Positions 3,551-46,065 of a stretch of DNA of 64,000 nucleotides are shown here, one piece after another; position 1 is the first letter of the stretch; each line of letters starts with the position of its first letter. Source of the stretch: an uncultured virus (IMG/VR IMGVR_UViG_3300023175_001302). Its lineage: Duplodnaviria; Heunggongvirae; Uroviricota; Caudoviricetes. The notes beneath the pieces were generated by a model that was given only the letters and a program-made list of their open reading frames with translations, was not told the origin of the DNA and did not search any database. Position numbers and translations under genes: made by a program. The DNA lies in IMG/VR virus record IMGVR_UViG_3300023175_001302; one strand, 5' to 3'.

Positions 3551-4267
3551 CTAATCCTCAATTTTATCAAATGATACTGTATAGCCTATTGCTATATGAC
3601 CTTGAATATTTTTTGTTCGTATTCCTTCATCATACACGATTACATCTGAAATGTCAAGTTCAAAGTTACTTATCATTTTATCTAAATTGCTTGGTTCTTC
3701 GCCCGGCATATGCCAAGTATTATATTCATCTAAATGAGATTTAAAACCGTATTTTTCTATTATTTTGTTAGTTCTATCACAGTCTGGATGTTTATGAAAG
3801 TCACCTGCGATAATAGTAGGAGTGTCTTTGAACTGCGATAGAACATACTCAATATCACCCATTCTTTCTAGTTCTAATATTGGATATTCACCGTATTGTT
3901 GTTGATAACATGGTAACATTGAAACTAAATTAATACCATTAACAACTGTTTTTAAAGCAGTACATCCCTGAAATGAATCATCTGCAACTATAACATGATG
4001 CACAGAAGGCATTGTTATACTTTCAGTATTACTAAATGTTGGTGCAGAATTACTTTTTCCTATACCAACACATAGTTCCCCTACACCCGGAGTTGACTCT
4101 ACCATAAATGAGCGGCCGCCTAATTCTCTTTCTAAATCTGATTTTTTGTCTTTTGGAAATCTCTGTAGTAAAACTATATCAGCACTTTTAATAACTTTTT
4201 CTAAGTAGTTCCAACCCCATCGCAAGTTGTCACAGTTATACTGCAGTATCCTTATAGAATAAACCAT
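3551..4267 (-). CDS. Endonuclease/exonuclease/phosphatase (EEP) family protein
   Basis: ILQYN, ADIVLLQ, IIAGDFH, LDKM and a C-terminal GH follow the EEP motif order. Confidence 0.7.
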   Translation of the reverse strand: MVYSIRILQYNCDNLRWGWNYLEKVIKSADIVLLQRFPKDKKSDLERELGGRSFMVESTPGVGELCVGIGKSNSAPTFSNTESITMPSVHHVIVADDSFQGCTALKTVVNGINLVSMLPCYQQQYGEYPILELERMGDIEYVLSQFKDTPTIIAGDFHKHPDCDRTNKIIEKYGFKSHLDEYNTWHMPGEEPSNLDKMISNFELDISDVIVYDEGIRTKNIQGHIAIGYTVSFDKIED

Positions 4268-4581
4268 TACTCTGCTGGTTCAATTGAACAAGCCAAGGTA
4301 AATGAATTGGCACGGCTTGCTCTTGTTACTTCTTCTACTTTTTGTTCTGCGATTTCCATATAATACATACCGACAATACCTTGCCCCTCATTATGTATCT
4401 TTTGTGCCATATCAATTGCAGTTTGTTGTGTGTGATGGAATAGCTGTATTAAAACTTCAATAACAAAATCGAATGGAGTTGTTTCATCATTATGCATCAC
4501 TACATAATAACGTTTTGGTTTTTCTAAATTCAAGTCTATCTCCTCAGTTGACTTTACTTTTGTGTCTTCATTCGCTATCAT
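4267..4581 (-). CDS. clpS: Clp protease adaptor ClpS
   Basis: YYVVMHNDETTPFDFVIEVLIQLF...IHNEGQGIVG...IAEQKV; start moved to the ATG at 4581, downstream of a terminator and a late promoter. Confidence 0.92.
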   Translation of the reverse strand: MIANEDTKVKSTEEIDLNLEKPKRYYVVMHNDETTPFDFVIEVLIQLFHHTQQTAIDMAQKIHNEGQGIVGMYYMEIAEQKVEEVTRASRANSFTLACSIEPAE

Positions 4582-4617
4582 TGTTATCTCATTTTTTTGG
4601 TTGGTAAAATATTTATC

Positions 4618-4645
4618 AAAAAAGAGAGGTGAATTCACCTCTCTT
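4618..4645 (-). terminator. Rho-independent terminator after hsp20
   Basis: AAGAGAGGTG-AATT-CACCTCTCTT followed by a T run on the minus strand. Confidence 0.75.
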
Positions 4646-4662
4646 AAAGTATAGCATAAAAC

Positions 4663-5079
4663 TTATTTTATTTCAATACGTTTTGCTTTCTTTTCTTCTG
4701 GAACTTTTCTTTCTAGTAGAACATATAAAAGACCATCTTCCATGATTGCCTTTTCTACTTCTACATGGTCAGCAAGTTTCCATTGACGGGAAAAAGAACG
4801 GTTCGCAATACCTTTATGTAGATATGTACGATCCTCTTCTTCAATATCTGGCTTATTGCCTTCAATTGTTAGCATTCCCTCTTTCACAGTAATTTCAATA
4901 TCGCTGCGTTTAAAGCCGGCCAAGGCTAAGGTGATTTGATATTCATTATCACCGATTGTTTCTACATTATAAGGGGGGTATCCTGAATTATCTAGTCTGT
5001 TGAAATCGTTCATCAAACGATCAAAGCCCAATACTGAGCGGTGGAAATCAGGAAGGTTTAGTGTTGAAATTCTTGTCAT
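4663..5079 (-). CDS. ibpA: Small heat shock protein (Hsp20/IbpA-like)
   Basis: GYPPYNVE, ITLALAGF, YLHKGIANRSFSRQW, A.MEDGLL and a C-terminal IEI motif. Confidence 0.92.
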   Translation of the reverse strand: MTRISTLNLPDFHRSVLGFDRLMNDFNRLDNSGYPPYNVETIGDNEYQITLALAGFKRSDIEITVKEGMLTIEGNKPDIEEEDRTYLHKGIANRSFSRQWKLADHVEVEKAIMEDGLLYVLLERKVPEEKKAKRIEIK

Positions 5080-5085
5080 TTTGTT

Positions 5086-5153
5086 TCTCCTTTAATAAGC
5101 AAGATATGTTGGGTCCCTTCTGGCGACCCAAGTAAGGTAAACTTTTTACCCTA
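5086..5153 (-). promoter_or_regulatory. ROSE-like RNA thermometer in the hsp20 5' UTR
   Basis: Three consecutive hairpins. The last, UCUUGCUU-AUUA-AAGGAGA, pairs a UUGCU motif with the SD sequence and has a bulged G. Confidence 0.7.
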
Positions 5154-5190
5154 CAATTATATTTAGTCATTTTATTCCAAATGTCAAGTG

Positions 5191-5460
5191 TTATACACCT
5201 ATTTTTTCTGAAAAAAGTTTAATTTCTTTTGCAGGACCAATATTACAAGGTAAATCACCGTGTTCATCAATGTAATGTTGTATTACTGCTTTATACCATA
5301 ATTGACTATTATGGTGTGCTACTTTATTAAATCGCCAAATGCCATTACTACTACCGTCCATTGTCAATAACGCACGGGTTGCTTCTTTTTGTAATGTCCT
5401 TAAATCAAGTTCGTCTAAGTCTATCATTGCCAATCTATTTGACGCTTTTTCTTTAACCAA
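5191..5460 (-). CDS. Hypothetical protein
   Basis: ORF in operon context; the true start may be the second Met. Confidence 0.6.
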   Translation of the reverse strand: MVKEKASNRLAMIDLDELDLRTLQKEATRALLTMDGSSNGIWRFNKVAHHNSQLWYKAVIQHYIDEHGDLPCNIGPAKEIKLFSEKIGV

Positions 5461-5675
5461 CGCTTGCGTCCTGCATCTTTAGCTTTACGTTTAATTTCAC
5501 TTGGTTTCACATATTCTCTACGTGTTCTAACTTCTTGGATAATTCCATCTTCTGTGCATTTCTTTTTAAATTTTCTTAATGCACGTTCAAAGTTTCCATT
5601 CTTAACTTCTACGGTTGTACCAGACTTGGTATATCTGTCTGTGTCGTTTCCTTTTATATAATGTCTTTTACTCAT
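5424..5675 (-). CDS. rpsU: Ribosomal protein bS21
   Basis: VEVKNGNFERALRKFKKK...GIIQEVRTRREYVKPSEIKRK. Confidence 0.92.
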   Translation of the reverse strand: MSKRHYIKGNDTDRYTKSGTTVEVKNGNFERALRKFKKKCTEDGIIQEVRTRREYVKPSEIKRKAKDAGRKRWLKKKRQIDWQ

Positions 5676-6189
5676 TTTTGTTTATCAAACCTGTAATTCT
5701 ATTACCGTTTTGTTTAAGCGGTTGTTCATATTTATAGTTTTCTAAATCATTCTCTATCGCTGATTTAAAATATTCTAATACGTCAGATGCTTTAGACATT
5801 TCTCTGCCACGCATTTGAATTGTAATTTTTACCTTAGCACCTTTATCTAAAAATTGTTGCGCTCTACGCATTTTTATTTGTAAGTCATGCTCTCCTATAC
5901 CAGGTCTAAACTTGACTTCCTTAATCTCAATAGCGTTTGCTCTTGCATTTTTTGCTTGTAACTTTTCACGCTTTTTAAGTTCGTAGTTATATTTATTTAA
6001 ACTTATAATTTTAGCTACAGGAGGTTCTGCATCAGGAACTATTAATACTAAATCTAATTCTTGTGATTCAGCTTTATCTAATGCTTGAAATTTAGACATT
6101 ACTCCTAATTGTTCGCCGTCACTATCTATGACTCGCAACTTATTTGAATCTATATCGTTATTAGATATAATGTTAGATTTGTTTTTCAT
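5668..6189 (-). CDS. infC: Translation initiation factor IF-3
   Basis: LRVIDSDGEQLGVM, LDLVLI...PPVAKI, IKEVKFRPGIGEHDL and KVKITIQMRGRE. Confidence 0.95.
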   Translation of the reverse strand: MKNKSNIISNNDIDSNKLRVIDSDGEQLGVMSKFQALDKAESQELDLVLIVPDAEPPVAKIISLNKYNYELKKREKLQAKNARANAIEIKEVKFRPGIGEHDLQIKMRRAQQFLDKGAKVKITIQMRGREMSKASDVLEYFKSAIENDLENYKYEQPLKQNGNRITGLINKNE

Positions 6190-7440
6190 TTATGTTTTTT
6201 GACTTACCTTTGTTTTATCGTCAAACACTAAGATTGGATCAGTACCGTCTTTGATAAAATCACCATTAATAATTACAGATTTAAGTCCTCGTTTCGCTAA
6301 ACTAGGTAATCTGAATTGTAATTTAAGAAGAGACTTTTCAATAGAACTCCTTAAACCACGAGCACCGGTTTTATCTTCTGACGCCTGCTTTGCTATTTCT
6401 TGTAAAGCAGAATCTTTAAATTCTAATTCAACTCCGTCCAATGAAAATAGTTTTTTAAACTGAGCGACAATACTATTCTTTGGCTCTGTTAAAACTTGTA
6501 CTAATTGCTCTTCATTCAACGGATCTAATCCTACTAATATTGGAAATCTACCAGTAAACTCTGGGATAACACCATATTTAATAACATCTTGTGCTTGAAC
6601 TGTTTCACGTATATTTATCTTTGAATTAGATTTGTCTAAAACAGTTGCATTAAATCCAATACTAGAATTGGTATTAACACGGCGTTCGATTATCTTTTCA
6701 ATACCAACAAACGCACCGCCAACAATAAACAGTATTTTACTTGTATCTACTTCCACCATATCTTGTCCGGGATGTTTACGTCCTCCGCCTGGTGGGACAC
6801 GAACAGTTGTACCTTCTACAATTTTCAGTAGTGCTTGTTGTACACCCTCGCCACTTACATCTTTTGTGATAGATACGTTTTCACCTTTCTTGGCTTTTTT
6901 ATCGATTTCATCAATATATATAATACCGTGTTCTGCTTTTGCTACATCAAAGTCTGCTGCCATTAACAAACGCTGAACTACGTTCTCAACATCGTCACCT
7001 ACATAACCGCTCTCTGTTAGTGATGTCGCATCAATCTGTGCGAATGGTACTTCTAAAAACTTTGAAATTGTTTTTGCTAATAATGTTTTACCAGTTCCAC
7101 TTGGCCCAAGAACCATGACATTTGATTTATCTAGTTCTATACCATCTTTGGTATCTGAATTAATTCTTTTGTAATGATTATAAACTGCTACACTTAGAAC
7201 TTCTTTGGCTTCATCTTGACCAATAATATGTTCGTCTAGGAATTCTTTAATCTCTTCTGGACTTGGAAGTTCTTCTAGCTTTTCGGTTTTGTCTTTGGTG
7301 ACACGTGTTTCATGTATAATCTCATAACATAAATCTACACACTCATTACAAATGTATTGATTTGGTCCTGCGATTAAAGTTTTAACTTCTTCTTTTTGCT
7401 TGCCACAAAAAGAACATGTATATTCTGTTTTATCAGTCAC
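6190..7440 (-). CDS. clpX: Clp protease ATP-binding subunit ClpX
   Basis: C4 zinc domain CSFCGK..CNEC, Walker A GPSGTGKT, pore loop GYVG, RKH loop, IGF loop and GARGLR. Confidence 0.97.
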
Positions 7441-7453
7441 GTGTCACCTACTC

Positions 7454-8806
7454 TTATTTTTTCAAGTCGTCTAACCAACCTGAACGTTTAACCAACTCAG
7501 TATTTATCTTACGCTGTTTTTCAGCTTCAGAGATATTATCGCTTAAAGAGGTCGATTTGTCAAGCGTTTTTTTCTCTTTTTTTGAAAAAAGTGCGTCAAA
7601 TATTTCTTCTTGTCTACCATCATTATTATGACGATTGATGAAGCTATAATTGGCTGCTATCAATAATAGAACAGCAAGTGGGTCGAACACAAAAATAAAC
7701 ACAATGATTAACCAACGTACCGCATCATCTACAGTATCACGTTCTGCATTACCATATACAACTTCTGCGATATATTTAATTGGACCAACTTCTGCTTCTA
7801 GTTTACGAACTTCTGTTTCTAATTCAAACTTTTCATCACGTAGTTCTTCATTAGTAATTTCAACTGTTCTAACCTTTTCAATAAGTTGTTCAATCTCTAC
7901 ACTGTTATCTATTTCTGAAACCGAATTTAGCTGCGCTCTTAGTCTGTCGATAGTTGCTTGTGAATTTTGAACATCACGTTCTGCTATAGAACGCAATCTT
8001 TTTATTTCTTCACGTGCTTGGTTAATTGCTGCGCTATCAACAGAACCACGAATATCTTCTACAATTTGAACAAGACCTGCTTTTTCTTGTTGTAGTGATA
8101 ATCTAAATGCTTCTACTTTGGCTGCAGTTTTTGCACCGTATCTACCATCTTGTTTTGAACCAACTAAACCTTGAAGTTTTCTTATTTCTTCATTTTCAAC
8201 ATATGTCTGTAATTTTGTTAGGGTTTCATCGATACGTGATATTTGGTCAAGATAAGATTTAACTTGTTCTTCTTGCCCATTTTGTTCACTTTCAATGATT
8301 GACATCTGTTCATCGATTGCAGGTTGTACTCTGTCGTATGCTTGATTCATACGAGTTTGTTCTGCGTCAAGTTGTGATTGAATGTCAGATGTATCATCTG
8401 CTGTTTCATTTTCCAACTTTTCGATTTTGATTTCAGTTCGATTAATTATTTCTTCATTACGAATTATATCATTAGCTATTCTTTCAGCACGAGCCGTGTA
8501 TTGTTGTCCTTCTGCTGCTTGTTCTAAGTGCGCCCTGGATAAAAATCCAAAGATACCCATAGATGTAATAAACATAAGAACAATAACTGCTATTGTTAGA
8601 TATGATTTCAGAAGAAATGGTGCCCTCTTCCAATTACGGTAGACCCATGAAGCTGCTACTAATTTACCTACTTCAAGTGAGCCTGCCATTATAGCTACTG
8701 GTATAGCGGAGGCGGCAAAAATCGCCATAAGACCAGCGATTGAAAACCATCCAGCGATTGCTGCTATAGAAATCGCTACCAGAAAGGTGATAATTGGAAA
8801 TATCAT
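7454..8806 (-). CDS. Membrane-anchored coiled-coil protein with a peptidoglycan-binding-like insertion
   Basis: Three N-terminal TM helices, a long heptad region, LQGLVGSKQDGRYGAKT (PG_binding_1-like) and a C-terminal TM IIVFIFVFDPLAVLLL. Confidence 0.65.
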   Translation of the reverse strand: MIFPIITFLVAISIAAIAGWFSIAGLMAIFAASAIPVAIMAGSLEVGKLVAASWVYRNWKRAPFLLKSYLTIAVIVLMFITSMGIFGFLSRAHLEQAAEGQQYTARAERIANDIIRNEEIINRTEIKIEKLENETADDTSDIQSQLDAEQTRMNQAYDRVQPAIDEQMSIIESEQNGQEEQVKSYLDQISRIDETLTKLQTYVENEEIRKLQGLVGSKQDGRYGAKTAAKVEAFRLSLQQEKAGLVQIVEDIRGSVDSAAINQAREEIKRLRSIAERDVQNSQATIDRLRAQLNSVSEIDNSVEIEQLIEKVRTVEITNEELRDEKFELETEVRKLEAEVGPIKYIAEVVYGNAERDTVDDAVRWLIIVFIFVFDPLAVLLLIAANYSFINRHNNDGRQEEIFDALFSKKEKKTLDKSTSLSDNISEAEKQRKINTELVKRSGWLDDLKK

Positions 8807-10077: not shown

Positions 10078-11010
10078 TTAAATCCACTTAGTGATTTTTC
10101 TACCGCCCGCTGGATAGATTGAGAAACGTGCGCCTTTAACACCAAAGTTGTCACGGTCGCCTTTATACATAGCCATTAGAACTGGCTCAAATTCATCTTC
10201 TAAACGCTCACCATTTGTATGTGCTGAGCCTGTAGCAACTAGTTTGTTGCCTTTGAACTGTGGTTCACCTTGAAGAATTAAGTCAACGTTCTGTTGTCCA
10301 CGTTCACCACCGAATCCATTGCCGTAGATAGAAATACCACGTAGTTTGCCGTTCTGAATCTTACGTGCATATGTTGTTGCTCTTGGAATTTCACCGTTGG
10401 TAATAGCAATAACATCTTTAGCAAACTGTAAAATTTCTTCTTTTGCTTCTGGCATGTTCTGATACACTGCTTTCATTTCACGGTCACTCATGCCGCCCCA
10501 TTGACCAAAGTCTTTAGCACGTGAGCCTTTCTTGTGTGAGATCCAAGCAACTTCGTTACCACTTGCATCAACAGCATGAAAGTCTGATTTAGGAGTACCC
10601 GGTGTAGAAACAAACTTAGCAACAGGAACAGTCTTATCGCCAATTACAAGATTGACTTCTGCTTTGCCCTGTTTCATTTGTTCTAGCATTTCGTTGATTT
10701 GTGTTAGTGCTGCGTCTTCATCACGTGTTGAGAAGCCTGCACCTTTACCGCCAAACTCACTAGTCTTTTCTAGACCAGTTAGTCTCACAGTTCTACCATC
10801 TTCTAATGGGAAACTATCAGGAATGTTACCTTTTTTCAGGTCTGCGATTAGTTCAGGATCACGCTTAATCTTAACAGTAGGCATTTCTTCGCCTCTCAAT
10901 ACGAAAGGTGAACCAGTTTCAATCTTCTTAATCAAAGCCTGTAGCCTTGCTGGATTTTTAAGTAAGTTTGGTCTCTGTAATGGACCTTCATTTAATTCTG
11001 AATAACGCAT
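10078..11010 (-). CDS. Late protein, possible PD-(D/E)XK-like nuclease fold
   Basis: Start reassigned to MRYSELNEG just after GATAAATA; TPKSDF...WISHK resembles a divergent PD-(D/E)XK core. Confidence 0.55.
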   Translation of the reverse strand: MRYSELNEGPLQRPNLLKNPARLQALIKKIETGSPFVLRGEEMPTVKIKRDPELIADLKKGNIPDSFPLEDGRTVRLTGLEKTSEFGGKGAGFSTRDEDAALTQINEMLEQMKQGKAEVNLVIGDKTVPVAKFVSTPGTPKSDFHAVDASGNEVAWISHKKGSRAKDFGQWGGMSDREMKAVYQNMPEAKEEILQFAKDVIAITNGEIPRATTYARKIQNGKLRGISIYGNGFGGERGQQNVDLILQGEPQFKGNKLVATGSAHTNGERLEDEFEPVLMAMYKGDRDNFGVKGARFSIYPAGGRKITKWI

Positions 11011-11140
11011 AAATGTATTTATCAAAAAAGAAACCCCCACTGGAAAGGTACAGTGAGGGCCTCTTGTTATAAAATGTGCTTTATTATATATGTTGATAAA
11101 ATGAAAAGCAGAGTTTATCAACTAGTATCTTTTATATATA

Positions 11141-11350
11141 GTGATAGGTGGGACTAAGGATTACCCACAATCGCCTTGACATATCCTGTCTACATATCCA
11201 GCGAAACCTAGCATCAAAGAGTTACCCTCGAACCCGCATCTTCCTGTCTCCAGGCTCATGCTGTGCCACTACAGCTACTAGTCAAGTTAATGCCTATGTG
11301 AAGCATCGTTTCCTTGCACTATCTAACTAAAGACCGTCGTCTTTGTTATG
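11141..11350 (-). ncRNA. Putative structured non-coding RNA of unassigned family
   Basis: GC-richer island with no credible ORF, a strong upstream promoter (TTGACG-17-TATATT, 11356-11384) and many self-complementary stems. Confidence 0.6.
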
Positions 11351-11387
11351 TTCTTAATATAGCAAATCAAAACTGATTCGTCAAGCC

Positions 11388-11726
11388 TTAATCGTAATTA
11401 TCTAATAAATTTTCTTTACTTTCATCATAACCTTTTGCTGGATTTAAATCATCAGCATTTGGTAGTGGATCTTTTTTCTCTACGATAACTTCCCATTCTT
11501 GTGACCATTTTTTATTGATATCAAAAAGTCTTTGTGTAAAGTCAGGGTGTGTATCTGGAATAATTGCTTCTGCTGGACATTCAGGTTCACATACGCCACA
11601 ATCAATACATTCATCTGGATTGATTACTAACATATCTTCTCCTTCATAAAAGCAGTCTACTGGACATACTTCTACACAATCTGTATATTTACATTTAATA
11701 CAATCTTGTGTCACAACATAAGTCAT
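11388..11726 (-). CDS. fdxA: FdxA-type ferredoxin
   Basis: [29 protein letters not shown]...[21 protein letters not shown]. Confidence 0.95.
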
Positions 11727-11950
11727 TCTGTTTCCTCTTCTTTTTCTATTGTATATTTGTGTACTTCTGATTCTGGTATTTTATGCCAATGTTTTTCACC
11801 TTCTTTTGGTTGTGCTCCGATATACATTTCACCTGTTTCTCTATCGACTAACAACCATTTCATTGGCGCTTTAGTTTTTACAATTAGTTCAGCCGCGGTA
11901 TCTAGTTCATAAACATTAGTACCGTCTTTTAGTTTTCTAAATGTTGTCAT
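11723..11950 (-). CDS. Hypothetical protein
   Basis: Overlapping operon ORF. Confidence 0.6.
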
Positions 11951-12119
11951 TCTTCTCTCTTGTAAACTTTATATCACAATACCCACATTTTATAAAACCT
12001 TTTCTTGGTACATTATAATATACTAATGGGTGATCATTGTTCTCACCAGAACAACCTATTCTTTCTTTATCAGTATAAATGATAGTTTCCGGATATTCAG
12101 TCAAGCTCTCCATCCTCAC
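11937..12119 (-). CDS. zf-CHCC zinc-finger protein
   Basis: IGCSG...DHPLVY...IKCGYC gives the C-H-C-C pattern. Confidence 0.75.
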   Translation of the reverse strand: MRMESLTEYPETIIYTDKERIGCSGENNDHPLVYYNVPRKGFIKCGYCDIKFTREKNDNI

Positions 12120-12498
12120 GCATCTTTTTTCTTATTTTTGTCGCTGAAATATTATGTATGTCTTCACCTAAATCATGCTCTGTAAAAGTATATCCAACTG
12201 TCCGGCCATAACTAATATCAATAATATTTGGTACTTTGGCGACTTCAAAATCATGGTGTACTCTATAACCATGTTTGGCTAAACCTTCTACTATGTTTTT
12301 TCTTACGTCATAATAGTCCCATGGATTATCACTATTACCCATACCAGCATCACAGCCTTGAACATCCCTACACATAATTATCACTTGTCCAGTCTTTTCT
12401 ATTGCTTTTTTAAATAGTGCAGTATGACCATCATGCCATGGTTGCCACCTGCCTAGCATCTGTACTGTTGGTTTTTTCCAATCAAATGTAAAGTCCAT
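12097..12498 (-). CDS. Cytidyltransferase-like (HxGH) nucleotidyltransferase
   Basis: GRWQPWHDGH and C-terminal ISATKIRK. Confidence 0.8.
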   Translation of the reverse strand: MDFTFDWKKPTVQMLGRWQPWHDGHTALFKKAIEKTGQVIIMCRDVQGCDAGMGNSDNPWDYYDVRKNIVEGLAKHGYRVHHDFEVAKVPNIIDISYGRTVGYTFTEHDLGEDIHNISATKIRKKMREDGELD

Positions 12499-12925
12499 TT
12501 TTCTTCAATTCTATATGTCTGTGTACTGCGTATGATAATGTGTCTTGTGTATTATCAAACCATTCTGACACATGAAAATCCACCTTTTCTAAGTTTGGAT
12601 TTTCAAATATCTTATTTGTATCTTCAAAACGTCCTTCTTTAATAGTATCCATCCATACTGTAAAGTCTGCCTCAAATATATAACGTGTTAGTTCGGTGGG
12701 GCAAACAAAGTCACAAATAACTGTACGCCCACACCCTTTTTCAAAATCAGCAAGTGATCTCATTCGGCGAGCCTGACGAATTCTTGCGTCTTCGTCAAAC
12801 TGCCAATCATTTGCCCATTTTCGAACTTCATCGGCATTATACCAAGCACAGTCAAGATTCTTTTGTAATCTTTCTGCTAACCATGTTTTGCCACTGCCGG
12901 GAAGTCCGAATATCAGTATTTTCAT
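12482..12925 (-). CDS. Adenylylsulfate kinase-like P-loop kinase
   Basis: GLPGSGKT, NADEVR, R..QARRM, CDFVCP and FENP. Confidence 0.75.
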   Translation of the reverse strand: MKILIFGLPGSGKTWLAERLQKNLDCAWYNADEVRKWANDWQFDEDARIRQARRMRSLADFEKGCGRTVICDFVCPTELTRYIFEADFTVWMDTIKEGRFEDTNKIFENPNLEKVDFHVSEWFDNTQDTLSYAVHRHIELKKNGLYI

Positions 12926-19378: not shown

Positions 19379-20887
19379 TTAACCTTGATAGCCTTCTTTG
19401 CGTTTACATTCGTATACGTCTATATTAGTATCTAAGTAACTACTGTATAGCTTAACGTCATATCCCCATAATTTTTGAACATGTATTAATACTTGTTCAG
19501 CATTCTTTTTGTCTAACCTCTTACCATTAAACGAGTAATGGGTCAAAGTAAGTTCACGGCTTTCTGTGATATCCGCTTCTGTTACTTGAATATCAGGAAT
19601 CATTGCCGCTGTCACGTATTGTTGCGATAGTGCCTTACGCACACGCTTATATCCACGTTCATTATGAATACTGGTTACTTGATAATTGTCATTCTTTTCT
19701 TCATCATGTAGAACAAATAGTTTCCAATCACGAATAACTTTAGGTCCTAAAAACTGTAGAATAGCAGACTCGTCACGGTAGTTCGCAACGATATCTTTAA
19801 TCACATCACGCCAGTTTTGACCTACTATATCTGGAAACCACTCTTCGTCTTCTTTATCTGGTTCTTCACATATACGCTGTACATCTTTAAGGATAGCAAA
19901 GCCCAGTGCGTATGGATTGAACCCTGAATAGTGTTGTGAATTGAAATTCGGTTGATATAACACAGCACTATGAAGTTGAAAAAACTCTAACATCGCACCA
20001 TCATCTACTTTACCCTGATTATATAATTCATTAAAAATATAGTGATGTGTAAATGAAGCAAAACCTTCGTTCATAACTTTTGTTTGATATTGTGGATAGA
20101 AATACTGCGCAATACGTCTTACGATACGACATATTTCACGTTGCCATGGTTGTAATACTGGAGAATGCTTTTCTAAGAAGTATAACAAGTTTTCTTCTGG
20201 TTCTGAAGGCCATATGTATTTTTTATCTTCTCCATCTGTCTTTGTTTTCGGTAATGTTTTCCAAAGTTCATTAACTTGTGATTGCAAATATTCACTTCTG
20301 GCACGTTGTTTTTCTGCTTCACGTTTAGCATTCAACTTTGGCGGACGTTTATATTTGTTGATGCTCTGATACTGAATAGCATGACACGCATCAAGGGTCT
20401 CTTCTACAATCTCAACGCCGTATCTTTCTTCACAGCTTCTTATGTAATTTTTAGCGAATAGCAAATAATCTACAATAGCGTCAGGAGATGTCCATTGCTT
20501 AAACAAATAATTATTTTTAAAGAAGTGATTATGACCAAACGCAGCATGTGCTATAACTAATGCTTGTGTAGTCATAGAATTTTCTTCCATAAGATAGTTA
20601 ATGCATGGATTACTATTAATAACAAGTTCATAAGCAAGTCCCATACGTCCAGCTGTATATTGATGCATGTTACTAATAAAACTTTTACCAAAGCTCCAAT
20701 GGTTATACATTAGTGGCATACCAACAGAACTGTATGCGTCTAACATTTGTTCTACTGTGATGATTTCAATTTGATTAGGGAAACAATCAAGCCCCATGTC
20801 ATTGACTGCGATTTCTTCACACGCATCCATTACAGAATACAGTTTGTCAAAATCCCAATGGGAGCCTGTATAGAGTAATTTACTCAT
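19379..20887 (-). CDS. spoVR: SpoVR/YcgB family protein
   Basis: GMPLMYNHWSFGK, GLAYELVINSNPCI, AHAAFGHNHFFKNN, TKVMNEGFASFTH and NPYALGF. Confidence 0.93.
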   Translation of the reverse strand: MSKLLYTGSHWDFDKLYSVMDACEEIAVNDMGLDCFPNQIEIITVEQMLDAYSSVGMPLMYNHWSFGKSFISNMHQYTAGRMGLAYELVINSNPCINYLMEENSMTTQALVIAHAAFGHNHFFKNNYLFKQWTSPDAIVDYLLFAKNYIRSCEERYGVEIVEETLDACHAIQYQSINKYKRPPKLNAKREAEKQRARSEYLQSQVNELWKTLPKTKTDGEDKKYIWPSEPEENLLYFLEKHSPVLQPWQREICRIVRRIAQYFYPQYQTKVMNEGFASFTHHYIFNELYNQGKVDDGAMLEFFQLHSAVLYQPNFNSQHYSGFNPYALGFAILKDVQRICEEPDKEDEEWFPDIVGQNWRDVIKDIVANYRDESAILQFLGPKVIRDWKLFVLHDEEKNDNYQVTSIHNERGYKRVRKALSQQYVTAAMIPDIQVTEADITESRELTLTHYSFNGKRLDKKNAEQVLIHVQKLWGYDVKLYSSYLDTNIDVYECKRKEGYQG

Positions 20888-22173
20888 TGTTCTTCCCTCT
20901 TTTTAAATATTTCCCTGAACACTGGATATACATCATTACGATTTACTAATTGTTTAGCTATTAAATTATTATTATCTTTTTCTAATTCTTCATATTCTGA
21001 AATAAGATTACCTACTGCGGTATAGTATCCACCCATCCCAACACCTCGAGGTTCACCAACTTGGATATATGAAAAGAATTGTGTGACTGGTAATATATGT
21101 TTTCTAAGAATATCTTTAAGAACTGTATTATCGCTAGACCAATTATCGCCGTCACTTGCTTGTGCGAAGTATATATTCCATTCGCTAGGAGAATATCTTT
21201 CATTAATTATTTCTTTTGCTAATTCAAACGCACTACTAACAATAGTACCACCATTATCTTTACCAGAGAAAAATTCTTCTTCGTCTACTTCGTTTGCTTT
21301 TGTATGGTGTCTAATGAATACACACTTTACTGTTTTGTACTTACGGGATACAAACAAATTAAGAAGCATAAAGAAACGCTTTGCTAAGTCTTTATGAAAC
21401 TCTGTCATACTAGCAGAGACATCCATTACAAAGAATATAACAGCCTGTGAACTAGGTTTAGGTATTTTAGTAAAGTTATTGTATCTTAAATCTACAGGAT
21501 CAATAAAAGAAATTGCTCTTGCTCTAATTCTTAATACACGTATTTCTTCTTCTAGTTCAAGCCTACGTTTTTCATTTTTACAGTTTTCTAATTCTTCTTC
21601 AAGTTCACGTATCTTTTTCAGTTTAGGCTTTTGTAATGCAATACGTCTACCTATACTATTTACCATTGATTTTTCTAGATTGAGTTGAGCAGGGTTACCT
21701 TCATTTGTATACCCAGAACGTGCTATTTCCCATTTCTTTACTACACGATTTTCTTTTGGTATCATGTGTGGCAGTTCTAAATCTTCAAACAAAATGTTTA
21801 CAAATTCATCGTTGCTTAACGCAAAAGAAAAATCATCTTCTCCTTCACCATCAGGAGAACCTTCGTGTCCGACTCCACCACCACCGCCTTTTGGTTTTTC
21901 AAGTAGATCACCTTCAGTATATTCTTCATTTCCTGGAAGTACAATATCACGTGAACCACTCTGAGGATCATGTCCAAACTGTGGTTCATTTATACCTTTA
22001 CGTTGTATCGTAACGCCATGTTCATCGCCTGATCCTGATATTTTTCTTTTACCAAGACTATCGTATACACTTTTGCGTATTTGTTCTTTGTTTCTTTTCA
22101 GAAACTTTTGACGATTGTTTGAACTTTTACCGCCTGGATTTTTGCGTCTATCAATAATAGTATTGTTAGGCAT
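20884..22173 (-). CDS. yeaH: YeaH/YhbH (DUF444) vWA-domain protein
   Basis: IIDRRKN..KS..NRQKF, PGNEEY, MDVSASM (MIDAS-like), FIRHHT, GGTIVSSA and AQASDGDNW. Confidence 0.93.
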   Translation of the reverse strand: MPNNTIIDRRKNPGGKSSNNRQKFLKRNKEQIRKSVYDSLGKRKISGSGDEHGVTIQRKGINEPQFGHDPQSGSRDIVLPGNEEYTEGDLLEKPKGGGGGVGHEGSPDGEGEDDFSFALSNDEFVNILFEDLELPHMIPKENRVVKKWEIARSGYTNEGNPAQLNLEKSMVNSIGRRIALQKPKLKKIRELEEELENCKNEKRRLELEEEIRVLRIRARAISFIDPVDLRYNNFTKIPKPSSQAVIFFVMDVSASMTEFHKDLAKRFFMLLNLFVSRKYKTVKCVFIRHHTKANEVDEEEFFSGKDNGGTIVSSAFELAKEIINERYSPSEWNIYFAQASDGDNWSSDNTVLKDILRKHILPVTQFFSYIQVGEPRGVGMGGYYTAVGNLISEYEELEKDNNNLIAKQLVNRNDVYPVFREIFKKREEQ

Positions 22174-22184
22174 GTTATCGTCCT

Positions 22185-24119
22185 CTAGTTAGACTTCTGG
22201 ACACGCATATACCATTCTACTAATCGTTTCACTTGACGTTCTGTGTAACCCTTTTCAGTCATACGTGATACGAAATCATCATGCTTCTGCTGGTCGTCTT
22301 TTGACTTCTTACTACCGAATGAGATTACTGGTAGTAGTTCTTCTGTGCCAGCGAACATCTTATGTTCGATAACTTCTTTCATTTTTTCGTATGCCGTCCA
22401 AGGAGGGTTGTTGCCTTCGTGCTTCGCTCTTGCTCTTAGAACCCAATTGACTACTTCGTTACGGAAGTCTTTAGGATTTGCGATACTTGCTGGCTTTTCA
22501 ATCTTTTCTAGTTCTTCATTTAGAATATCTCTATCAAATAAATTTCCAGTGTCTGGGTCTTTGAAGTCAATTTTCTGTATCCAATGATCCGCATATTCTA
22601 TATATCTATCAAATAAATTTTGTCCGTATTCTGAATAGCTTTCTAGGTATGCTTTTTGAATTTCATTACCTACTTGTTCTGCATACTTTACTGCTAGATG
22701 ATCCTTAATAAATCCAAGTAGCTTTTGTTCATGTTCTTCTGGGAACTGTTCACGTTTGATAGCTGTTTCTAGCACATACATCAAATGCACTGGATCAGCA
22801 GCAACTTCATTTGGATCAAAGTTAAATGTTTGTGACAAAATCTTAAATGCGAAACGTGTTGACATACCTGACATGCCTTCATCTACGCCGGCACTGTCTT
22901 TATATTCTTGCATTGACTTTGCTTTTGGATCTACATCATGTAGATTTTCACCATCGTAGATACGCATCTTTGCTGCTAGTGTTGAATTTTCATGCTCTTT
23001 CAAACGTGACAGAATTGAAAACTGTGCTAACATATCAAGTGTATGTGCTGCACATTTACTATCATCGAGACCTGATGATTTAAGCATCTTGTCATAGATT
23101 GCTGTTTCTTCTGATACACGTAGACAGTAAGGGACTTTAACGATGTAAACACGATCCAAGAACGCTTCGTTGTTCTTGTTGTTTCTGAATGCTTCCCATT
23201 CGCTTTCGTTGGAGTGTGCAACTACTACGCCGTTAAATGGGATTGCTGAGATGCCCTCAGTGCCCATATAGTTACCTTCTTGTGTCGCTGTTAGCAGTGG
23301 GTGTAGAACTTTGATAGGAGCTTTAAACATCTCCACGAATTCCATCATACCCTGGTTACCACGACATAGACCGCCACTAAACGCATATGAGTCTGGGTCA
23401 TTCTGTGAGAAGTATTCTAGTTTACGAATATCTGTCTTACCAACTAGTGACGAAATATCTTGGTTGTTATCATCGCCAGGTTCTGTCTTCATAATACCGA
23501 TTTGTTTTAGTTTTGAAGGATACATTTTTACAACAGAAAACTTACTAAGGTCTCCTTCAAATTCTTCTAATCTTTTAACTGCCCATGGAGAAAGTAGACC
23601 AGACAAGTAACGAGAAGGTACACCATATTTTTCTTCAAAGTCACTTCCGAAATCTTGTGGATTAAATAATCCAAGTGGTGTTTCAAACACTGGAGATATT
23701 TCATCACCTGCTTTTAGAACATAAATAGGATGCTTTTCCATAAGTTCTTTTAGTCGCTCTGCTAGTGATGATTTACCTCCACCTACTGGTCCTAATAGAT
23801 AAAGAACTTGTTTCTTTTCCTCTAGTCCCTGTGATGAATGTCTGAAGTATGCTACTAATCTTTCAATTGCTTCTTCCATACCATAGAAATCCTTGAAAGC
23901 AGGATATACTTTAATTGTTCTGTTTAGAAAAATTCTACTAAGTCTAGGATCTGAACTTGTATCTACAACTTCCGGCTCACCGATTGCATCTAGCATTCTT
24001 TCTGCAGCGGTTGCGTATGCTAATTTATCTTCTTTACAAAGATCAAGATAGTCTGTCAGTGACATTTCATCTTCTTTTTTACTAGCATAAATTTTGTTAA
24101 ACTTTTTTAAAACACTCAT
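22185..24119 (-). CDS. prkA: PrkA/YeaG family AAA+ serine kinase
   Basis: LLGPVGGGKSSLAE, TEPGDDNNQDISSLVGK, EFVEMFKAPIKVLHPLLTATQEG and NNEAFLDR. Confidence 0.95.
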   Translation of the reverse strand: MSVLKKFNKIYASKKEDEMSLTDYLDLCKEDKLAYATAAERMLDAIGEPEVVDTSSDPRLSRIFLNRTIKVYPAFKDFYGMEEAIERLVAYFRHSSQGLEEKKQVLYLLGPVGGGKSSLAERLKELMEKHPIYVLKAGDEISPVFETPLGLFNPQDFGSDFEEKYGVPSRYLSGLLSPWAVKRLEEFEGDLSKFSVVKMYPSKLKQIGIMKTEPGDDNNQDISSLVGKTDIRKLEYFSQNDPDSYAFSGGLCRGNQGMMEFVEMFKAPIKVLHPLLTATQEGNYMGTEGISAIPFNGVVVAHSNESEWEAFRNNKNNEAFLDRVYIVKVPYCLRVSEETAIYDKMLKSSGLDDSKCAAHTLDMLAQFSILSRLKEHENSTLAAKMRIYDGENLHDVDPKAKSMQEYKDSAGVDEGMSGMSTRFAFKILSQTFNFDPNEVAADPVHLMYVLETAIKREQFPEEHEQKLLGFIKDHLAVKYAEQVGNEIQKAYLESYSEYGQNLFDRYIEYADHWIQKIDFKDPDTGNLFDRDILNEELEKIEKPASIANPKDFRNEVVNWVLRARAKHEGNNPPWTAYEKMKEVIEHKMFAGTEELLPVISFGSKKSKDDQQKHDDFVSRMTEKGYTERQVKRLVEWYMRVQKSN

Positions 24120-25050: not shown

Positions 25051-25785
25051 TCAAGACTTTTCCTCTTCTTTATCATCTTTTTTATTAACGTCTGAAGTTT
25101 TCGCTTGTCCCCAATTTGGATTTGCTAACCAAGATTTAGCTGCACGGGATGATGGGGGTGTAACCAAAAATTTGTCAATTGACTTTTCAACATTTTTGAA
25201 ATTTTCAGCACGTTCAGGATCTTCTAAGCCGCCACTGTTATCTATAACGTGGAAGTTAGCTGCGCCAAATATTTGTTGAAATTTCATAAGATTATCTTGT
25301 ACGGTACGCCACATCTTAGTAACCATTTCAGAAGGTATACTTCTAGGGCGCTGTAAATTTCTATCTTGTGCTACTTCTTCGCTTGTGTTTACAAATAGCA
25401 TCATTGTATCATAACCTAGTGCTTTTAGTTTTTCATTAGCTTTTGATACTTTAGCAACATCTTTGCCAGTGCCGTCAATGATCATTCCAAGTCTACCATC
25501 AATATAAACATGCTCTTTACCTTTTGTTAACTCTTTAGCACGATTACGTGTAGCTTGTCCAGCATCACTACCAATGGTTTCTGGATCTAATGGCATATCT
25601 TGTTTTTTCATAAGATATTCAAATATATCATCGCTGTTTACAGTTTTAAGTCCTGTACCAGATAATAGTTTAGATGCGACAAATGATTTTCCACTTCCAG
25701 GTCCGCCTGCCATAAATACTGCTTTGAAAATATGAGGATCGTTTGGACCCTCTTCCAGTGGACTTATAATATCATTGACTTTCAT
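25051..25785 (-). CDS. P-loop kinase (AAA_33 / zeta toxin / PNK-kinase-like)
   Basis: AGGPGSGKS, VNSDD, IIDGTG and RNLQR; late promoter upstream. Confidence 0.75.
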   Translation of the reverse strand: MKVNDIISPLEEGPNDPHIFKAVFMAGGPGSGKSFVASKLLSGTGLKTVNSDDIFEYLMKKQDMPLDPETIGSDAGQATRNRAKELTKGKEHVYIDGRLGMIIDGTGKDVAKVSKANEKLKALGYDTMMLFVNTSEEVAQDRNLQRPRSIPSEMVTKMWRTVQDNLMKFQQIFGAANFHVIDNSGGLEDPERAENFKNVEKSIDKFLVTPPSSRAAKSWLANPNWGQAKTSDVNKKDDKEEEKS

Positions 25786-25809
25786 GGTAAAACTCCAATT
25801 AATTTATAG

Positions 25810-25817
25810 TATTTATC
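25810..25817 (-). promoter_or_regulatory. T4-type late promoter motif GATAAATA (representative copy)
   Basis: The same motif lies just upstream of gene starts at 4610, 8841, 11016, 31537, 34431, 36396, 36896, 38062, 38441, 41328 and 48269; it resembles the T4 gp55 consensus TATAAATA. Confidence 0.7.
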
Positions 25818-27879
25818 ATTCGCCGTTATAAATGGCTTGTGCTTTAATTGAGTTCCAAGACCTAATCTCATTATCTACTTTTAGTCTTAAAGATTTTAAT
25901 ATCTTATCTTGTTTTGGATATATATCATCTCTGTATAAAACTTTTAATTCTTGTTCTTTAGCACTATCCAAATCCCCACCAGGTGTAGTATATCTCATTT
26001 CTTCTACACGATTACGTAATGATCTAGCTTCACGCTCTAGGTTCATAAGATTTTCTTCAATAATTCTGGATTGTCTTTTTTGACTTTCATCACGGAATTT
26101 TGCTTGATCCAAATATCTTTGTATCTCTTTATATGTAACTTGTGCGTCTGAACGTATTTCCATCATTCTTGGGAATATTTCATTTCTCCACGATTTAACT
26201 GCTCCTGAATTTACAGTAATTGGAATTAACTGCCTATCTTTGTTATCAAAAGATGGTATACTTAAATCAGTATCTATAATTTTTGCTAAACGTGTCGCTG
26301 ATGAAATAGCAGGATTCATTGCGTCATTTAGCGATGCTGCTAAATCGCTTAACGCATTTTGATTTAGTGAACCTCTATCAAGACCACTTAAAGTATCAAT
26401 GCTAGGAGGTGATTCCAACTCTGGAACTTCTAATCTACTAGGCAAATCTTGTCTCAATCTTTCAATAATAGAATTATTAGCTGATACAGAGTTACTTCCA
26501 GTTACTGGCTTTTCTACTATTTTTGTCTGTCCATCTGAACCGATAACTGTTTCAAAGTTAGATGTAAATATACCAGACAGATCATCAAACAAGTCAAATA
26601 GATAAGCATTTATAGGTTGATATATACCTGCTAGTGAACTAAACGGTGACTGTGGGACACCAGAACTTTTACTTGCTTTATCTTTTGCTTCTGCCATGCG
26701 CATATTCACAGCATTTTTATTTGCTCTTGGATCTGTTTCTGTTGGTATTACAAATCTAGGTGTAGGTACTGCTAACGGCGCATTAAGTAAATTCGCCGCT
26801 GATTTTAGTTCATCTGAGCCAGTGTTCAATAGTACTGCTAATTTACAAGGATCTAACATAGCACCAGCCATTGCGATTGATTTTAGCTTACTAGTAATTT
26901 GATCCATCATATTAGAAAGACCTGCGATTTCTCCAGCAATCTGGTTAGTTATACTTGATATAGCATTAAGAGCACCTGATGCTAAACCGCCTAATGTACC
27001 TAGTGTTGCTCCTAGACCACCTAATGCGCTATTAACAATACTAGACAAACCACTAATAATGTTACTAATGTTATCTGATATACCACCAACTAAACCATTG
27101 ATTATACCCGATAAACCATTTTTTACTGTATCAAAGAAACCTAAAATCCCGGTGCCTTCCAGTATATTCATAATAGAATTCCCAGCATTATTAAGAAGAT
27201 CAAATGCACCATCAAATGCACCTGACATAATGCCCATTAGTTCATTGAAAAGAGAACAACTAGTATCACGCTCCCCGAACTGTGCGTTTAAACCTGCTAG
27301 TGTGTCTGCGTCTTCTAATGTTTGTGGCAAATCTAGTATTTGATTTTCAGTATGGGATTTTAAACTATTAAACATATCAATAGCAAGACCGCCAATTATG
27401 GCACCTTTTAAAATATCATCAAATTTAACACCTGTATTACTAAGAACTGCTGCTAAAATTGTACTTTTTGTTAGACTGCTTCCGCCTAAATTTGTATCTG
27501 ACAATAAATTGAATACAATATTAGTATCACTAAGAGCAGACACTCCTGGGTGAGCAGAATATGTTGTATAGTTAGCAATCCCGTTAGAAGCAACTGATAG
27601 GTATGGATTACTGAAATTATTTGATGCTATCTCACTTGAAATTATACCTAGAGCTTTTTGTCTATTAAATTGCTCTTCAGTTGCATTTAAGTCAGCTAAC
27701 GTAGATGGGTCTAGACCAATATTATTCGATTGATCATAATATGATACTGGAGTGTTTACTGCTTCGCCTAAACTTTCAAGTATCGCAGAGTCAGACGTAG
27801 GAGTGTTGGTTGATGTTAAAGCACCACCTCCTTTTCTTATAAACTCCTGGTATAGTCTTTCAAACTCTGCTTCGCTCAT
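25816..27879 (-). CDS. Large putative virion/baseplate-associated protein
   Basis: Gly/Ala/Ser-rich amphipathic middle region; directly follows the PAAR gene. Confidence 0.55.
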   Translation of the reverse strand: MSEAEFERLYQEFIRKGGGALTSTNTPTSDSAILESLGEAVNTPVSYYDQSNNIGLDPSTLADLNATEEQFNRQKALGIISSEIASNNFSNPYLSVASNGIANYTTYSAHPGVSALSDTNIVFNLLSDTNLGGSSLTKSTILAAVLSNTGVKFDDILKGAIIGGLAIDMFNSLKSHTENQILDLPQTLEDADTLAGLNAQFGERDTSCSLFNELMGIMSGAFDGAFDLLNNAGNSIMNILEGTGILGFFDTVKNGLSGIINGLVGGISDNISNIISGLSSIVNSALGGLGATLGTLGGLASGALNAISSITNQIAGEIAGLSNMMDQITSKLKSIAMAGAMLDPCKLAVLLNTGSDELKSAANLLNAPLAVPTPRFVIPTETDPRANKNAVNMRMAEAKDKASKSSGVPQSPFSSLAGIYQPINAYLFDLFDDLSGIFTSNFETVIGSDGQTKIVEKPVTGSNSVSANNSIIERLRQDLPSRLEVPELESPPSIDTLSGLDRGSLNQNALSDLAASLNDAMNPAISSATRLAKIIDTDLSIPSFDNKDRQLIPITVNSGAVKSWRNEIFPRMMEIRSDAQVTYKEIQRYLDQAKFRDESQKRQSRIIEENLMNLEREARSLRNRVEEMRYTTPGGDLDSAKEQELKVLYRDDIYPKQDKILKSLRLKVDNEIRSWNSIKAQAIYNGE

Positions 27880-27883
27880 CTTT

Positions 27884-28198
27884 TTATCCGTTAGCTATTA
27901 CGTTACTCGATCCACTTGCTACACGAATGCCGCAACTAAATGAATCGTTTATTCTTCCTAATGGTCGACCATTTACATACACGTTCGGTGAACCCGCTGC
28001 CAATGGTGTTGTGTGTGGTATACAAATGATACCGGTTGGTGTAGAATGCGGCACACCGTGTGGTGTATCTCTGTCACCTTTTCTAAAAGCCAACTTACCA
28101 TTAATAATCACATTTTCAGAACCAATAGAACATTGTCCAGGTCCGCAGGGATTGTGTGCTGTAGTTCTATCTGTTGTTCTCGCTGCTCCTGGCATCAA
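27884..28198 (-). CDS. PAAR spike-tip protein (T4 gp5.4-like)
   Basis: PGAARTTD..H, GSENVIING..A.RKGD..H, GSPNVYVNGRPLGRIND..CG..ASGSSNV. Confidence 0.9.
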   Translation of the reverse strand: MMPGAARTTDRTTAHNPCGPGQCSIGSENVIINGKLAFRKGDRDTPHGVPHSTPTGIICIPHTTPLAAGSPNVYVNGRPLGRINDSFSCGIRVASGSSNVIANG

Positions 28199-45152: not shown

Positions 45153-45181
45153 AATATAGTGTGATTCGCTATATCTGTCAA
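45153..45181 (-). promoter_or_regulatory. sigma70-type promoter with internal GANTC
   Basis: TTGACA-gatatagCGAATCAcac-TATATT. Confidence 0.75.
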
Positions 45182-46065
45182 GAAAAATCGAAAATATCTT
45201 CTTCTACATCATCTACCATATCTTTAATACGGCGTTCACTGATATCAATATATTCTTGTGTCAAGTCCATACCGATATACGAGTGACCTAAACGTAGTGC
45301 CGCAATACCAGTACTACCACTACCATTAAACGGATCAAGAACTACCGAGTTTGGTCCAGGTGCGTATACATTAATCAACCAACGCATCAAGTCAATAGGC
45401 TTTGGTGTAGGATGTGTATTATATTCACCACGCTCTTTACGTGTGACACGAGGAGCATAGAAATACTTTTGATGTTCTGCTATGTCAAAGTGTCCTACTA
45501 TATTGCTTGGATAACGACCATCTGGATTTGCGTTTACACGCTCAGTTTCTTGTTCTGTTGACTTAGTAACATCACTACCGAATGCTCTGCGTTTGGCACC
45601 ACCGCTTACCCAACCAGTCGGTGGCTTGCCCTCCCAAGGAACACGATTATCATCAATATTGATTGTACCTGTTCCCCAACGTTCTATATTCGCTTTAATT
45701 GTTTTCTCACTAATAGGCTTTTGTGCTACAGCAATAGGTTCGTGTGCTGGCTTTAGTTTATTTGCTTTAGCCATCTTAGTTGTAATCATCCATATAACTT
45801 GGTCTTTAATATCAAAACCACCGTCTTCCATTTTACACGCCATACGATGATACAACTCAGGTGAACAAAAACTTAATGCCCATCCACCGGGTTTAAGAAC
45901 ACGTAACACTTCTTCCCAAGTAGTATCAGGCGGGACATCTTTATCCCACCCAACACCTGCGATATCCATACCATACGGAGGATCAGTTACAACTAAATCA
46001 ACTGAGTTTTCTTTGATGTCTTTTAGTAGTTCGACATTATCTCCGCATAGTAAGTTATAGTTCAT
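45178..46065 (-). CDS. Beta-class N6-A/N4-C DNA methyltransferase
   Basis: VTDPPY near the N-terminus; HPTPKP and VLDPFNGSGSTG near the C-terminus. Confidence 0.92.
   Translation of the reverse strand: MNYNLLCGDNVELLKDIKENSVDLVVTDPPYGMDIAGVGWDKDVPPDTTWEEVLRVLKPGGWALSFCSPELYHRMACKMEDGGFDIKDQVIWMITTKMAKANKLKPAHEPIAVAQKPISEKTIKANIERWGTGTINIDDNRVPWEGKPPTGWVSGGAKRRAFGSDVTKSTEQETERVNANPDGRYPSNIVGHFDIAEHQKYFYAPRVTRKERGEYNTHPTPKPIDLMRWLINVYAPGPNSVVLDPFNGSGSTGIAALRLGHSYIGMDLTQEYIDISERRIKDMVDDVEEDIFDFS

Follow-up and report, generated by a model that had tools for sequence, protein, structure and literature searches.

A divergent manA-family RNA encoded as a probable stand-alone gene in a large T4-like phage

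The RNA described here is encoded on the minus strand of a 64,000-nt stretch from an uncultured tailed phage (IMG/VR IMGVR_UViG_3300023175_001302; hereafter the window) and is almost certainly a divergent member of the manA family. Covariation shows its predicted fold to be the nine-helix manA core, and the settings of its relatives make it very probable that the RNA is a gene in its own right, standing alone rather than acting as a switch before a protein gene. Taken as a whole, the explanation that we favor on balance is a stand-alone manA RNA that self-assembles into a trans-acting scaffold or decoy particle and is carried as an accessory cassette.

Membership in the manA family

A match to the Rfam manA model (RF01745) at window 11138-11344 (-) covers model positions 1-192 of 192 with 46.7 bits (E 6.5e-11). 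The RF01745 gathering cut-off, which is an annotation threshold and not a structural feature, is 55.2 bits, and the default Rfam scan skips the RNA because its score falls short of this value. The first-pass annotation had described an unassigned RNA and held a confident match to a described Rfam family to count against its reading; the full-length manA match is in substance such a finding, though it lies below the gathering score. Rfam gave 13 matches at E 10 or below, and the runner-up after manA reached only E 0.38. None of the 13 belonged to a known self-cleaving ribozyme family or was a tRNA, tmRNA, RNase P, SRP, or 6S RNA, and ARAGORN found none here, in agreement with what the first reading had concluded by eye.

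Scores below the cut-off are not particular to this copy: 16 of 20 clade representatives miss it and 4 exceed it. Passing scores among the clade relatives are 75.6, 69.2, 64.0, 55.9, 55.5, and 55.4 bits; relatives L122 and L126 lie above the cut-off, as does a copy that lies, unannotated, between genes of Mosig, a cultured Pelagibacter phage (MT647606.1; 64.0 bits). R1, a covariance model built from the clade of the window RNA, gives this RNA 181.6 bits by construction. In the reciprocal test, R1 recovers a canonical manA at 73.9 bits and the Photobacterium manA copies at ~81 bits (80.9 for the SKA34 copy). The full-model RF01745 match, the passing relatives, and the reciprocal R1 matches therefore identify a sub-threshold manA clade and not a new family. 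Photobacterium chromosomes carry family members, so the RNA cannot be called phage specific, as had been proposed.

The relatives were gathered by pattern scans of viral contigs (at least 119 and at least 120 stretches) and from the neighbors of the downstream gene. Among the matches listed, at least 138 full-length copies could be parsed (93 distinct, 42 groups at 92%), and a further 21, cut off or unparsed, were left out of the set. The first viral-contig pattern also caught chance matches, as 1 of its 20 first loci passed the manA cut-off. A nonexhaustive pattern scan of GTDB genomes, in which 80 loci of at least 120 matches listed were examined, yielded no clade member (best R1 scores, 16-17 bits); its four Photobacterium matches, located away from the real manA copies, were rejected as chance. 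Blastn with the window RNA, and likewise with L078, returned no match in 50,697 phage records, and two relatives of the window RNA reached phage Mosig in the same records.

The manA motif of Rfam RF01745 (Weinberg et al. 2010, PMC2864571) has the same nine helices in the same order, the GACG loop, the GUG after P2, the GNRA L6, and the P9 hairpin, and it shares the marine T4-like phage setting. The window RNA differs from RF01745 by a 4-bp P3a (CAAG/CUUG), a GAAAY/AA loop, and loop letters altered by compensatory change; its phage probably has an alphaproteobacterial rather than a cyanobacterial host, and its context looks stand-alone rather than that of a 5' leader. The literature searched, mostly papers outside subscription and including the accessible parts of PMC7779021 and 10.1101/2020.02.04.933952, held no account of this clade, of a stand-alone manA gene, or of manA in pelagiphages. 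It likewise held no paper tying manA to ROOL/GOLLD or to pRNA and none on CFR1. The manA family and its cages are already known; this clade is new to the searched literature.

The window comes from a large T4-like phage encoding UvsX, SSB, DnaB, primase, NrdAB, and tail proteins. An alphaproteobacterial host is suggested by the permuted two-piece tmRNA gene, which is of the alphaproteobacterial type. This gene and other gene groups of the window are included in Table 1.

Conserved fold

The manA helix order was drawn on a plain MAFFT alignment of the 42 representatives. Paired cells amount to 81.6%, against 62.8 in shuffled and at most 49.3 in slid controls, and both partners vary in 45 of 62 pairs. 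In the 38 closer relatives, pairing rises to 90.9% (74.9 when shuffled), with two-sided change in 47 of 66 pairs, which is the covariation among homologues that had been named as a check. P1 to P9 thus appear in the consensus order of manA with covariation support, as expected of a family member. Left unaided, RNAalifold recovers P1, P2, P3a/b, P5, P6, P7, and P9, with 31 of 44 pairs compensatory, and does not recover P4 and P8, which in the drawn structure are 84% and 81% paired in the 38 relatives. By folding energy alone, the window RNA stands out only modestly from shuffled sequences (z = -1.87), 8 of 200 of which did equally well.

All nine stems picked out by eye in the first-pass annotation are present in the sequence, and five of them hold across the 38 relatives: AAAGAC/GUCUUU (78% paired, the inner three pairs 100%), AUGCU/GGCAU (97%), CCUG/CAGG (97%), GUGGG/CCCAC (100%), and the end pairing GAUAG/CUAUC (100%). 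The other four fail, namely, GCUGU/ACAGC (64%), CUAG/CUGG (66%), the long-range CUUGAC/GUCAAG (54%), and GAG/CUC (40%), a slipped register of P7. The lowest-energy inner hairpin of P8 was rejected, being paired in only 45% of cells in the same relatives, and a constrained fold at -64.4 kcal/mol was set aside as forcing a nonstandard pair. One manA copy (L173:2467-2700) stops after P6 and continues into unrelated sequence.

Table 1. Features of the locus and of its surroundings (window coordinates)
Feature	Position	Strand	Remarks
Sigma-70-type promoter	11356..11384	-	-35 TTGACG 11384-11379; 17-nt spacer with GAATC; -10 TATATT 11361-11356
manA-family RNA, about 210 nt	11140..11349	-	RF01745 match, R1, RNA-run contigs
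P1 5' hairpin, GACG loop	11324..11348	-	Core 11344-11329; GACG in 55/62 distinct rows
P2 closing helix	11143..11323	-	11323-11319 with 11147-11143; 100% paired in 38 sequences; 2/5 pairs compensatory
P3 (4-bp P3a, GAAAC/AA internal loop, P3b, loop L3)	11283..11316	-	L3 ACAUA 11299-11295 pairs with L8
P4	11208..11281	-	11281-11276 with 11213-11208; encloses P5, P6, P7; not in RNAalifold fold
P5	11275-11265	-	Inside P4; loop AGU 11270-11268
P6	11263-11234	-	Inside P4; GNRA loop GAGA 11250-11247
P7	11231-11214	-	Inside P4; loop ACU 11222-11220
P8, double-duty loop	11171..11204	-	AGGA 11187-11184 pairs with L9; UAUGU 11183-11179 with L3
P9 hairpin	11148..11168	-	Loop UCCU 11160-11157 pairs with L8; 100% paired in 38 sequences; loop covariation
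Terminator-like hairpin + U tail	11024..11065	-	75 nt past RNA; hairpin at same place in RNA-less phages
GATAAATA, T4-late-promoter-like motif	11016..11023	-	5 nt ahead of next gene's ATG; kept in RNA-less relatives
Downstream gene, 310 aa, phrog_13937	10078..11010	-	Not tied to RNA
Upstream 4Fe-4S ferredoxin gene	11388..11726	-
Permuted two-piece tmRNA, alphaproteobacterial type, tag ANTNAAPAMAIAA	14732-15075	-	115.2 bits; kept in 7/10 related loci
ClpS, Hsp20, ribosomal protein S21, IF3, ClpX gene block	4267-7440	-
Overlapping APS-kinase-like and small nucleotidyltransferase genes	12097-12925	-
PrkA (YeaG), DUF444 (YeaH), SpoVR (YcgB)	19379-24119	-	Complete trio in phage
Tape-measure-like gene between zeta-toxin-like kinase and PAAR-motif protein	25051-28195	-
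N6/N4 methyltransferase	45178-46065
GAATC-spacer promoters	56266, 55890, 54858, 47460, 47096, 45181, 13688, 11384, 10064, 9849	-

Loops that could mediate assembly

Five manA RNAs were seen by cryo-EM to form closed oligomers, particles of 8, 10, or 60 subunits of which the decamers and the 60-mer are built on pentamers (10.64898/2026.07.01.735769). According to the same preprint, the decamer is held by L6-P6' GNRA, L5-L7', and L3-L8' contacts and the 60-mer by L5-L7' and L8-L9', the particles formed in vitro with RNA at about 3 mg/mL and Mg at 10 mM, and manA provides the first natural RNA-only icosahedral cage. All four contacts are present in the window RNA (L3-L8, 5 bp; L8-L9, 4 bp; L5-L7, 3 bp; and the GNRA L6, which is GAGA in 49 of 62 rows), with helices numbered from the Rfam structure, whose equivalence to the numbering of the preprint we infer.

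L3 forms 4.60 bp with its own L8 versus 3.08 with shuffled partners (25 distinct pairs), and L8 forms 3.62 bp with its own L9 versus 2.87 (21 distinct L9); in neither case were any of 5,000 shuffles as good. An unbiased ranking of 14,758 column pairs, drawn from 75 sequences, places two L8-L9 pairs at 20 and 22 (3 compensatory tree events apiece) and two L3-L8 pairs at 30 and 85 (2 apiece), where the background averages 0.06 events; the remaining loop pairs rank low, so that just 2 of the 5 L3-L8 pairs rank high in this pooled alignment. L5-L7 is weak, at 3 bp and +0.3 kcal/mol in the window copy and with no tree events; its shuffle test gave 1/5,000 with Watson-Crick pairs and a nonsignificant 526/5,000 once G-U was allowed. 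Five of seven control loop pairs were flat. The other two controls also beat most shuffles (L5-L9, 23/2,000; L3-L5, 11/2,000), with an effect of 0.2 to 0.3 bp versus 0.9, which shows that kinship inflates the loop-pairing tests. Three of the 42 representatives (L136, L186, and L206) have no clear L8-L9 match, and a fourth was misparsed.

The manA_pho34_A767 decamer has its L3-L8, L5-L7, and L6 GNRA contacts in common with the window RNA (10.64898/2026.07.01.735769), and its name suggests that pho34 stands for Photobacterium sp. SKA34. Like the window RNA, the SKA34 copy combines a 4-bp P3a and its internal loop with a double L8. It is 54% identical to the window RNA and chromosomal rather than phage borne, and L5-L7 is weaker in the window RNA. 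The L5-L7 and L8-L9 kissing loops of the manA_A0F1 60-mer, a T=1 cage, are also present, as judged from the contacts described in the preprint. By analogy with these particles, the window RNA would probably form an oligomer in vitro.

The foremost alternative is that the RNA is indeed stand-alone but remains a monomer in the cell, its loop pairings being internal pseudoknots of a compact ligand- or protein-binding fold and the cages an artifact of concentrated RNA in vitro. Covariation is blind to whether pairing is intra- or intermolecular, the oligomers, which differ from one family member to another, are known only from in vitro work, and the weakness of L5-L7 in the window copy also favors this reading. 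Against it, all five manA RNAs examined by cryo-EM closed into oligomers through these very loops, and the four surface contacts are maintained across copies that are only 54 to 57% identical. We consider a monomer rather unlikely on this evidence.

A probable gene of its own

The promoter proposed in the first-pass annotation, TTGACG-17-TATATT, is in place, and the transcript would start at 11349, 7 nt past it, to judge from its position. Such sigma-70-like sites as a whole do not exceed chance in this region (21 against an expected 16.9 +/- 4.4), but this one recurs at the same place in homologous contexts. We scored 74 distinct contexts, that is, those loci among the matches listed whose flanks were fetched; the counts overstate independence because the contexts come from related phages. 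Among these matches, P1 is immediately preceded by a sigma-70 promoter in 56 of 73 contexts versus 6 of 672 controls, a terminator lies within 60 nt downstream in 29 of 73 versus 17 of 664, and a TATAAATA motif, the T4 late promoter, which GATAAATA resembles, occurs within 130 nt downstream in 12 of 72 versus 11 of 672. The recurrent promoter and the covarying homologues uphold the view of an independently promoted, highly structured RNA. The segment is also GC-richer than the window, as had been noted (0.46 versus 0.36), and it is free of minus-strand ORFs of at least 40 aa over the RNA; "ORF-less" does not extend to the plus strand, which has a 60-aa GTG ORF.

Parts of 10900-11750 occur in 15 RNA runs, and contigs cover the RNA in all four examined, from four studies (one contig, for instance, spans 11133-11334 with 2 differences, and another matches 11146-11309 exactly); such contigs attest presence in RNA libraries and carry no strand, ends, or level. 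Contig depth peaks over the RNA in all four runs (6,825-7,695 versus 189 and 41 in adjoining bins of X2, only slightly in X1) and permits no conclusion on expression level because the contigs come from runs chosen with this stretch.

In the accessible part of PMC2864571, manA is listed as cis-regulatory and a possible riboswitch, a label repeated in those of PMC9964418 and PMC10665884 and in the preprint 10.64898/2026.07.01.735769. Such a role for the window RNA in regulating the downstream gene is in our judgment improbable. It would fit the position of the RNA upstream of a gene on the same strand and followed by a terminator-like hairpin, the ability of L3 and the 5' side of P8 to compete for one L8 strand (-2.2 versus -2.3 kcal/mol), and the 16 of 72 contexts, among the matches listed, with no separator between the RNA and the next gene. 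However, the hairpin and leader remain with the gene where the RNA is absent, the terminator lies outside the RNA without overlapping it, and the competing P8 hairpin is the one paired in only 45% of cells. The next ORFs, as delimited by a crude ORF caller among the matches listed, fall into 24 clusters among 65, with 9 on the opposite strand and 5 of 65 resembling Hsp20/IbpA by eye, and the copies in L139 and L186 sit between tRNAs. No expression platform tied to one constant class of downstream genes was found. The published context is that of 5' leaders of mannose, nucleotide, ibpA, or photosynthesis genes, whereas the next gene here is phrog_13937, behind a hairpin; this mismatch questions the published role of manA rather than the membership of the RNA. 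The 310-aa product of that gene is conserved, with 437 viral relatives and no Pfam or named family; weak Atlas leads point to restriction-endonuclease-like clusters (scores <0.9).

A tRNA or tmRNA lies just upstream of the RNA in 6 of 73 contexts among the matches listed. These abutting copies, the permuted tmRNA 3.4 kb away in this phage, and the invariant unpaired bases of the RNA could suggest a catalytic or processing RNA acting on phage tRNA/tmRNA transcripts, which is very unlikely given that most copies are far from tRNAs, that the 13 Rfam matches at E 10 or below include no ribozyme family, and that the main text of 10.64898/2026.07.01.735769 reports no catalysis. As to particular settings, the copy at L151:2137-2685 begins directly after a permuted tmRNA gene, apparently in one transcript, and that at L143:10-558 is flanked by a glutamine riboswitch and a freshwater-2 RNA and follows a capsid-like gene.

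Among the 24 sigma-70-like promoters listed, 10 carry GAATC in the spacer, in many cases with GTAATC at the start; with a stricter pattern, it occurs in 6 of 19 promoters versus 4% of random 30-mers. GAATC/GATTC is about half as frequent as expected in the window, which encodes an N6/N4 methyltransferase. GANTC is the CcrM site, and these promoters possibly form a methylation-read or MotA-box-like class.

A probable accessory cassette

Ten loci carry the downstream gene, and 6 of them lack the RNA within 5 kb of it. In L123/L124, the ferredoxin gene is joined directly to the same leader, hairpin, and GATAAATA-ATG, with promoter and RNA both absent; this empty site defines a removable promoter-plus-RNA cassette about 265 bp long. 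Neither model detects manA in the 342-kb record of a related phage (G004; completeness estimated at 92%), and G005 has no manA copy. A close relative, whose downstream gene is 87% identical, bears a different RNA allele that is 97 to 98% like copies in other settings, and this suggests exchange between phages. The RNA is best read as an accessory element that phages acquire and lose together with its promoter.

The pRNA of phage phi29 is another phage RNA of <200 nt, forming a pentameric ring by loop-loop pairing and essential for packaging. It has no sequence match to the window RNA, which, unlike an essential packaging component, is missing from close relatives (G004, G005, and the empty site of L123/L124). 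That the window RNA would be a virion-assembly RNA forming a five-membered ring at the capsid vertex, like pRNA, is suggested by pentamers built via kissing loops, by similar size, and by the grouping of 14 of 72 upstream ORFs in one cluster, the member of which that was tested is Gp23, the major capsid protein, but it is very unlikely in view of the absence of the RNA from the 342-kb record, the presence of the family in Photobacterium chromosomes, and a promoter that is sigma-70 and not late.

Proposed role and implications

The stand-alone manA RNA that we favor would operate as follows. The host sigma-70 polymerase would start the transcript at about 11349, and the transcript would end at the hairpin 75 nt downstream or be trimmed back to the P2 helix. 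The nine-helix core would expose the kissing loops: L8 would pair through its 3' half with L3 and through its 5' half with L9, and L5 with L7, alongside the GNRA L6. As in other manA RNAs, these loops would pair between molecules to give pentamers and then closed particles, for which the Photobacterium-type decamer is the nearer guess. The resulting stable, multivalent RNA particle would act in trans during infection as a scaffold or decoy for host proteins, possible decoy targets being, e.g., nucleases or RNA-sensing defenses.

The scaffold or decoy role itself is tentative. A role in trans would suit an accessory gene that has translation and stress modules around it (tmRNA, IF3, S21, ClpX, ClpS, and Hsp20); no Ro60-, Hfq-, or GcrA-like family was found among the window proteins scanned (part of the window's ORFs against Pfam). 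Of the roles first suggested, ribozyme-like, decoy, or regulatory, a decoy or scaffold stays plausible, cis regulation is disfavored, and there is no sign of a ribozyme. OLE, ROOL, GOLLD, and ARRPOF are natural RNAs that form oligomers without protein and whose function is unclear (introduction of 10.64898/2026.07.01.735769); unlike the window RNA, these are several hundred nucleotides long and dimeric or dihedral, and none has an Rfam match here.

More speculatively, and with less probability than the role just outlined, manA in these phages may be a structural RNA gene with which infected marine alphaproteobacteria build RNA-only rings or capsid-like cages, strain-specific L3-L8/L8-L9 codes keeping alleles apart and the particle sheltering or soaking up cargo. 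We think this picture unlikely as it stands.

To conclude, the clade provides comparative evidence that manA RNAs can be free-standing genes whose assembly loops are under selection and most of whose members escape standard annotation. The copy in phage Mosig, a cultured Pelagibacter phage, makes the existence of such particles in cells directly testable.
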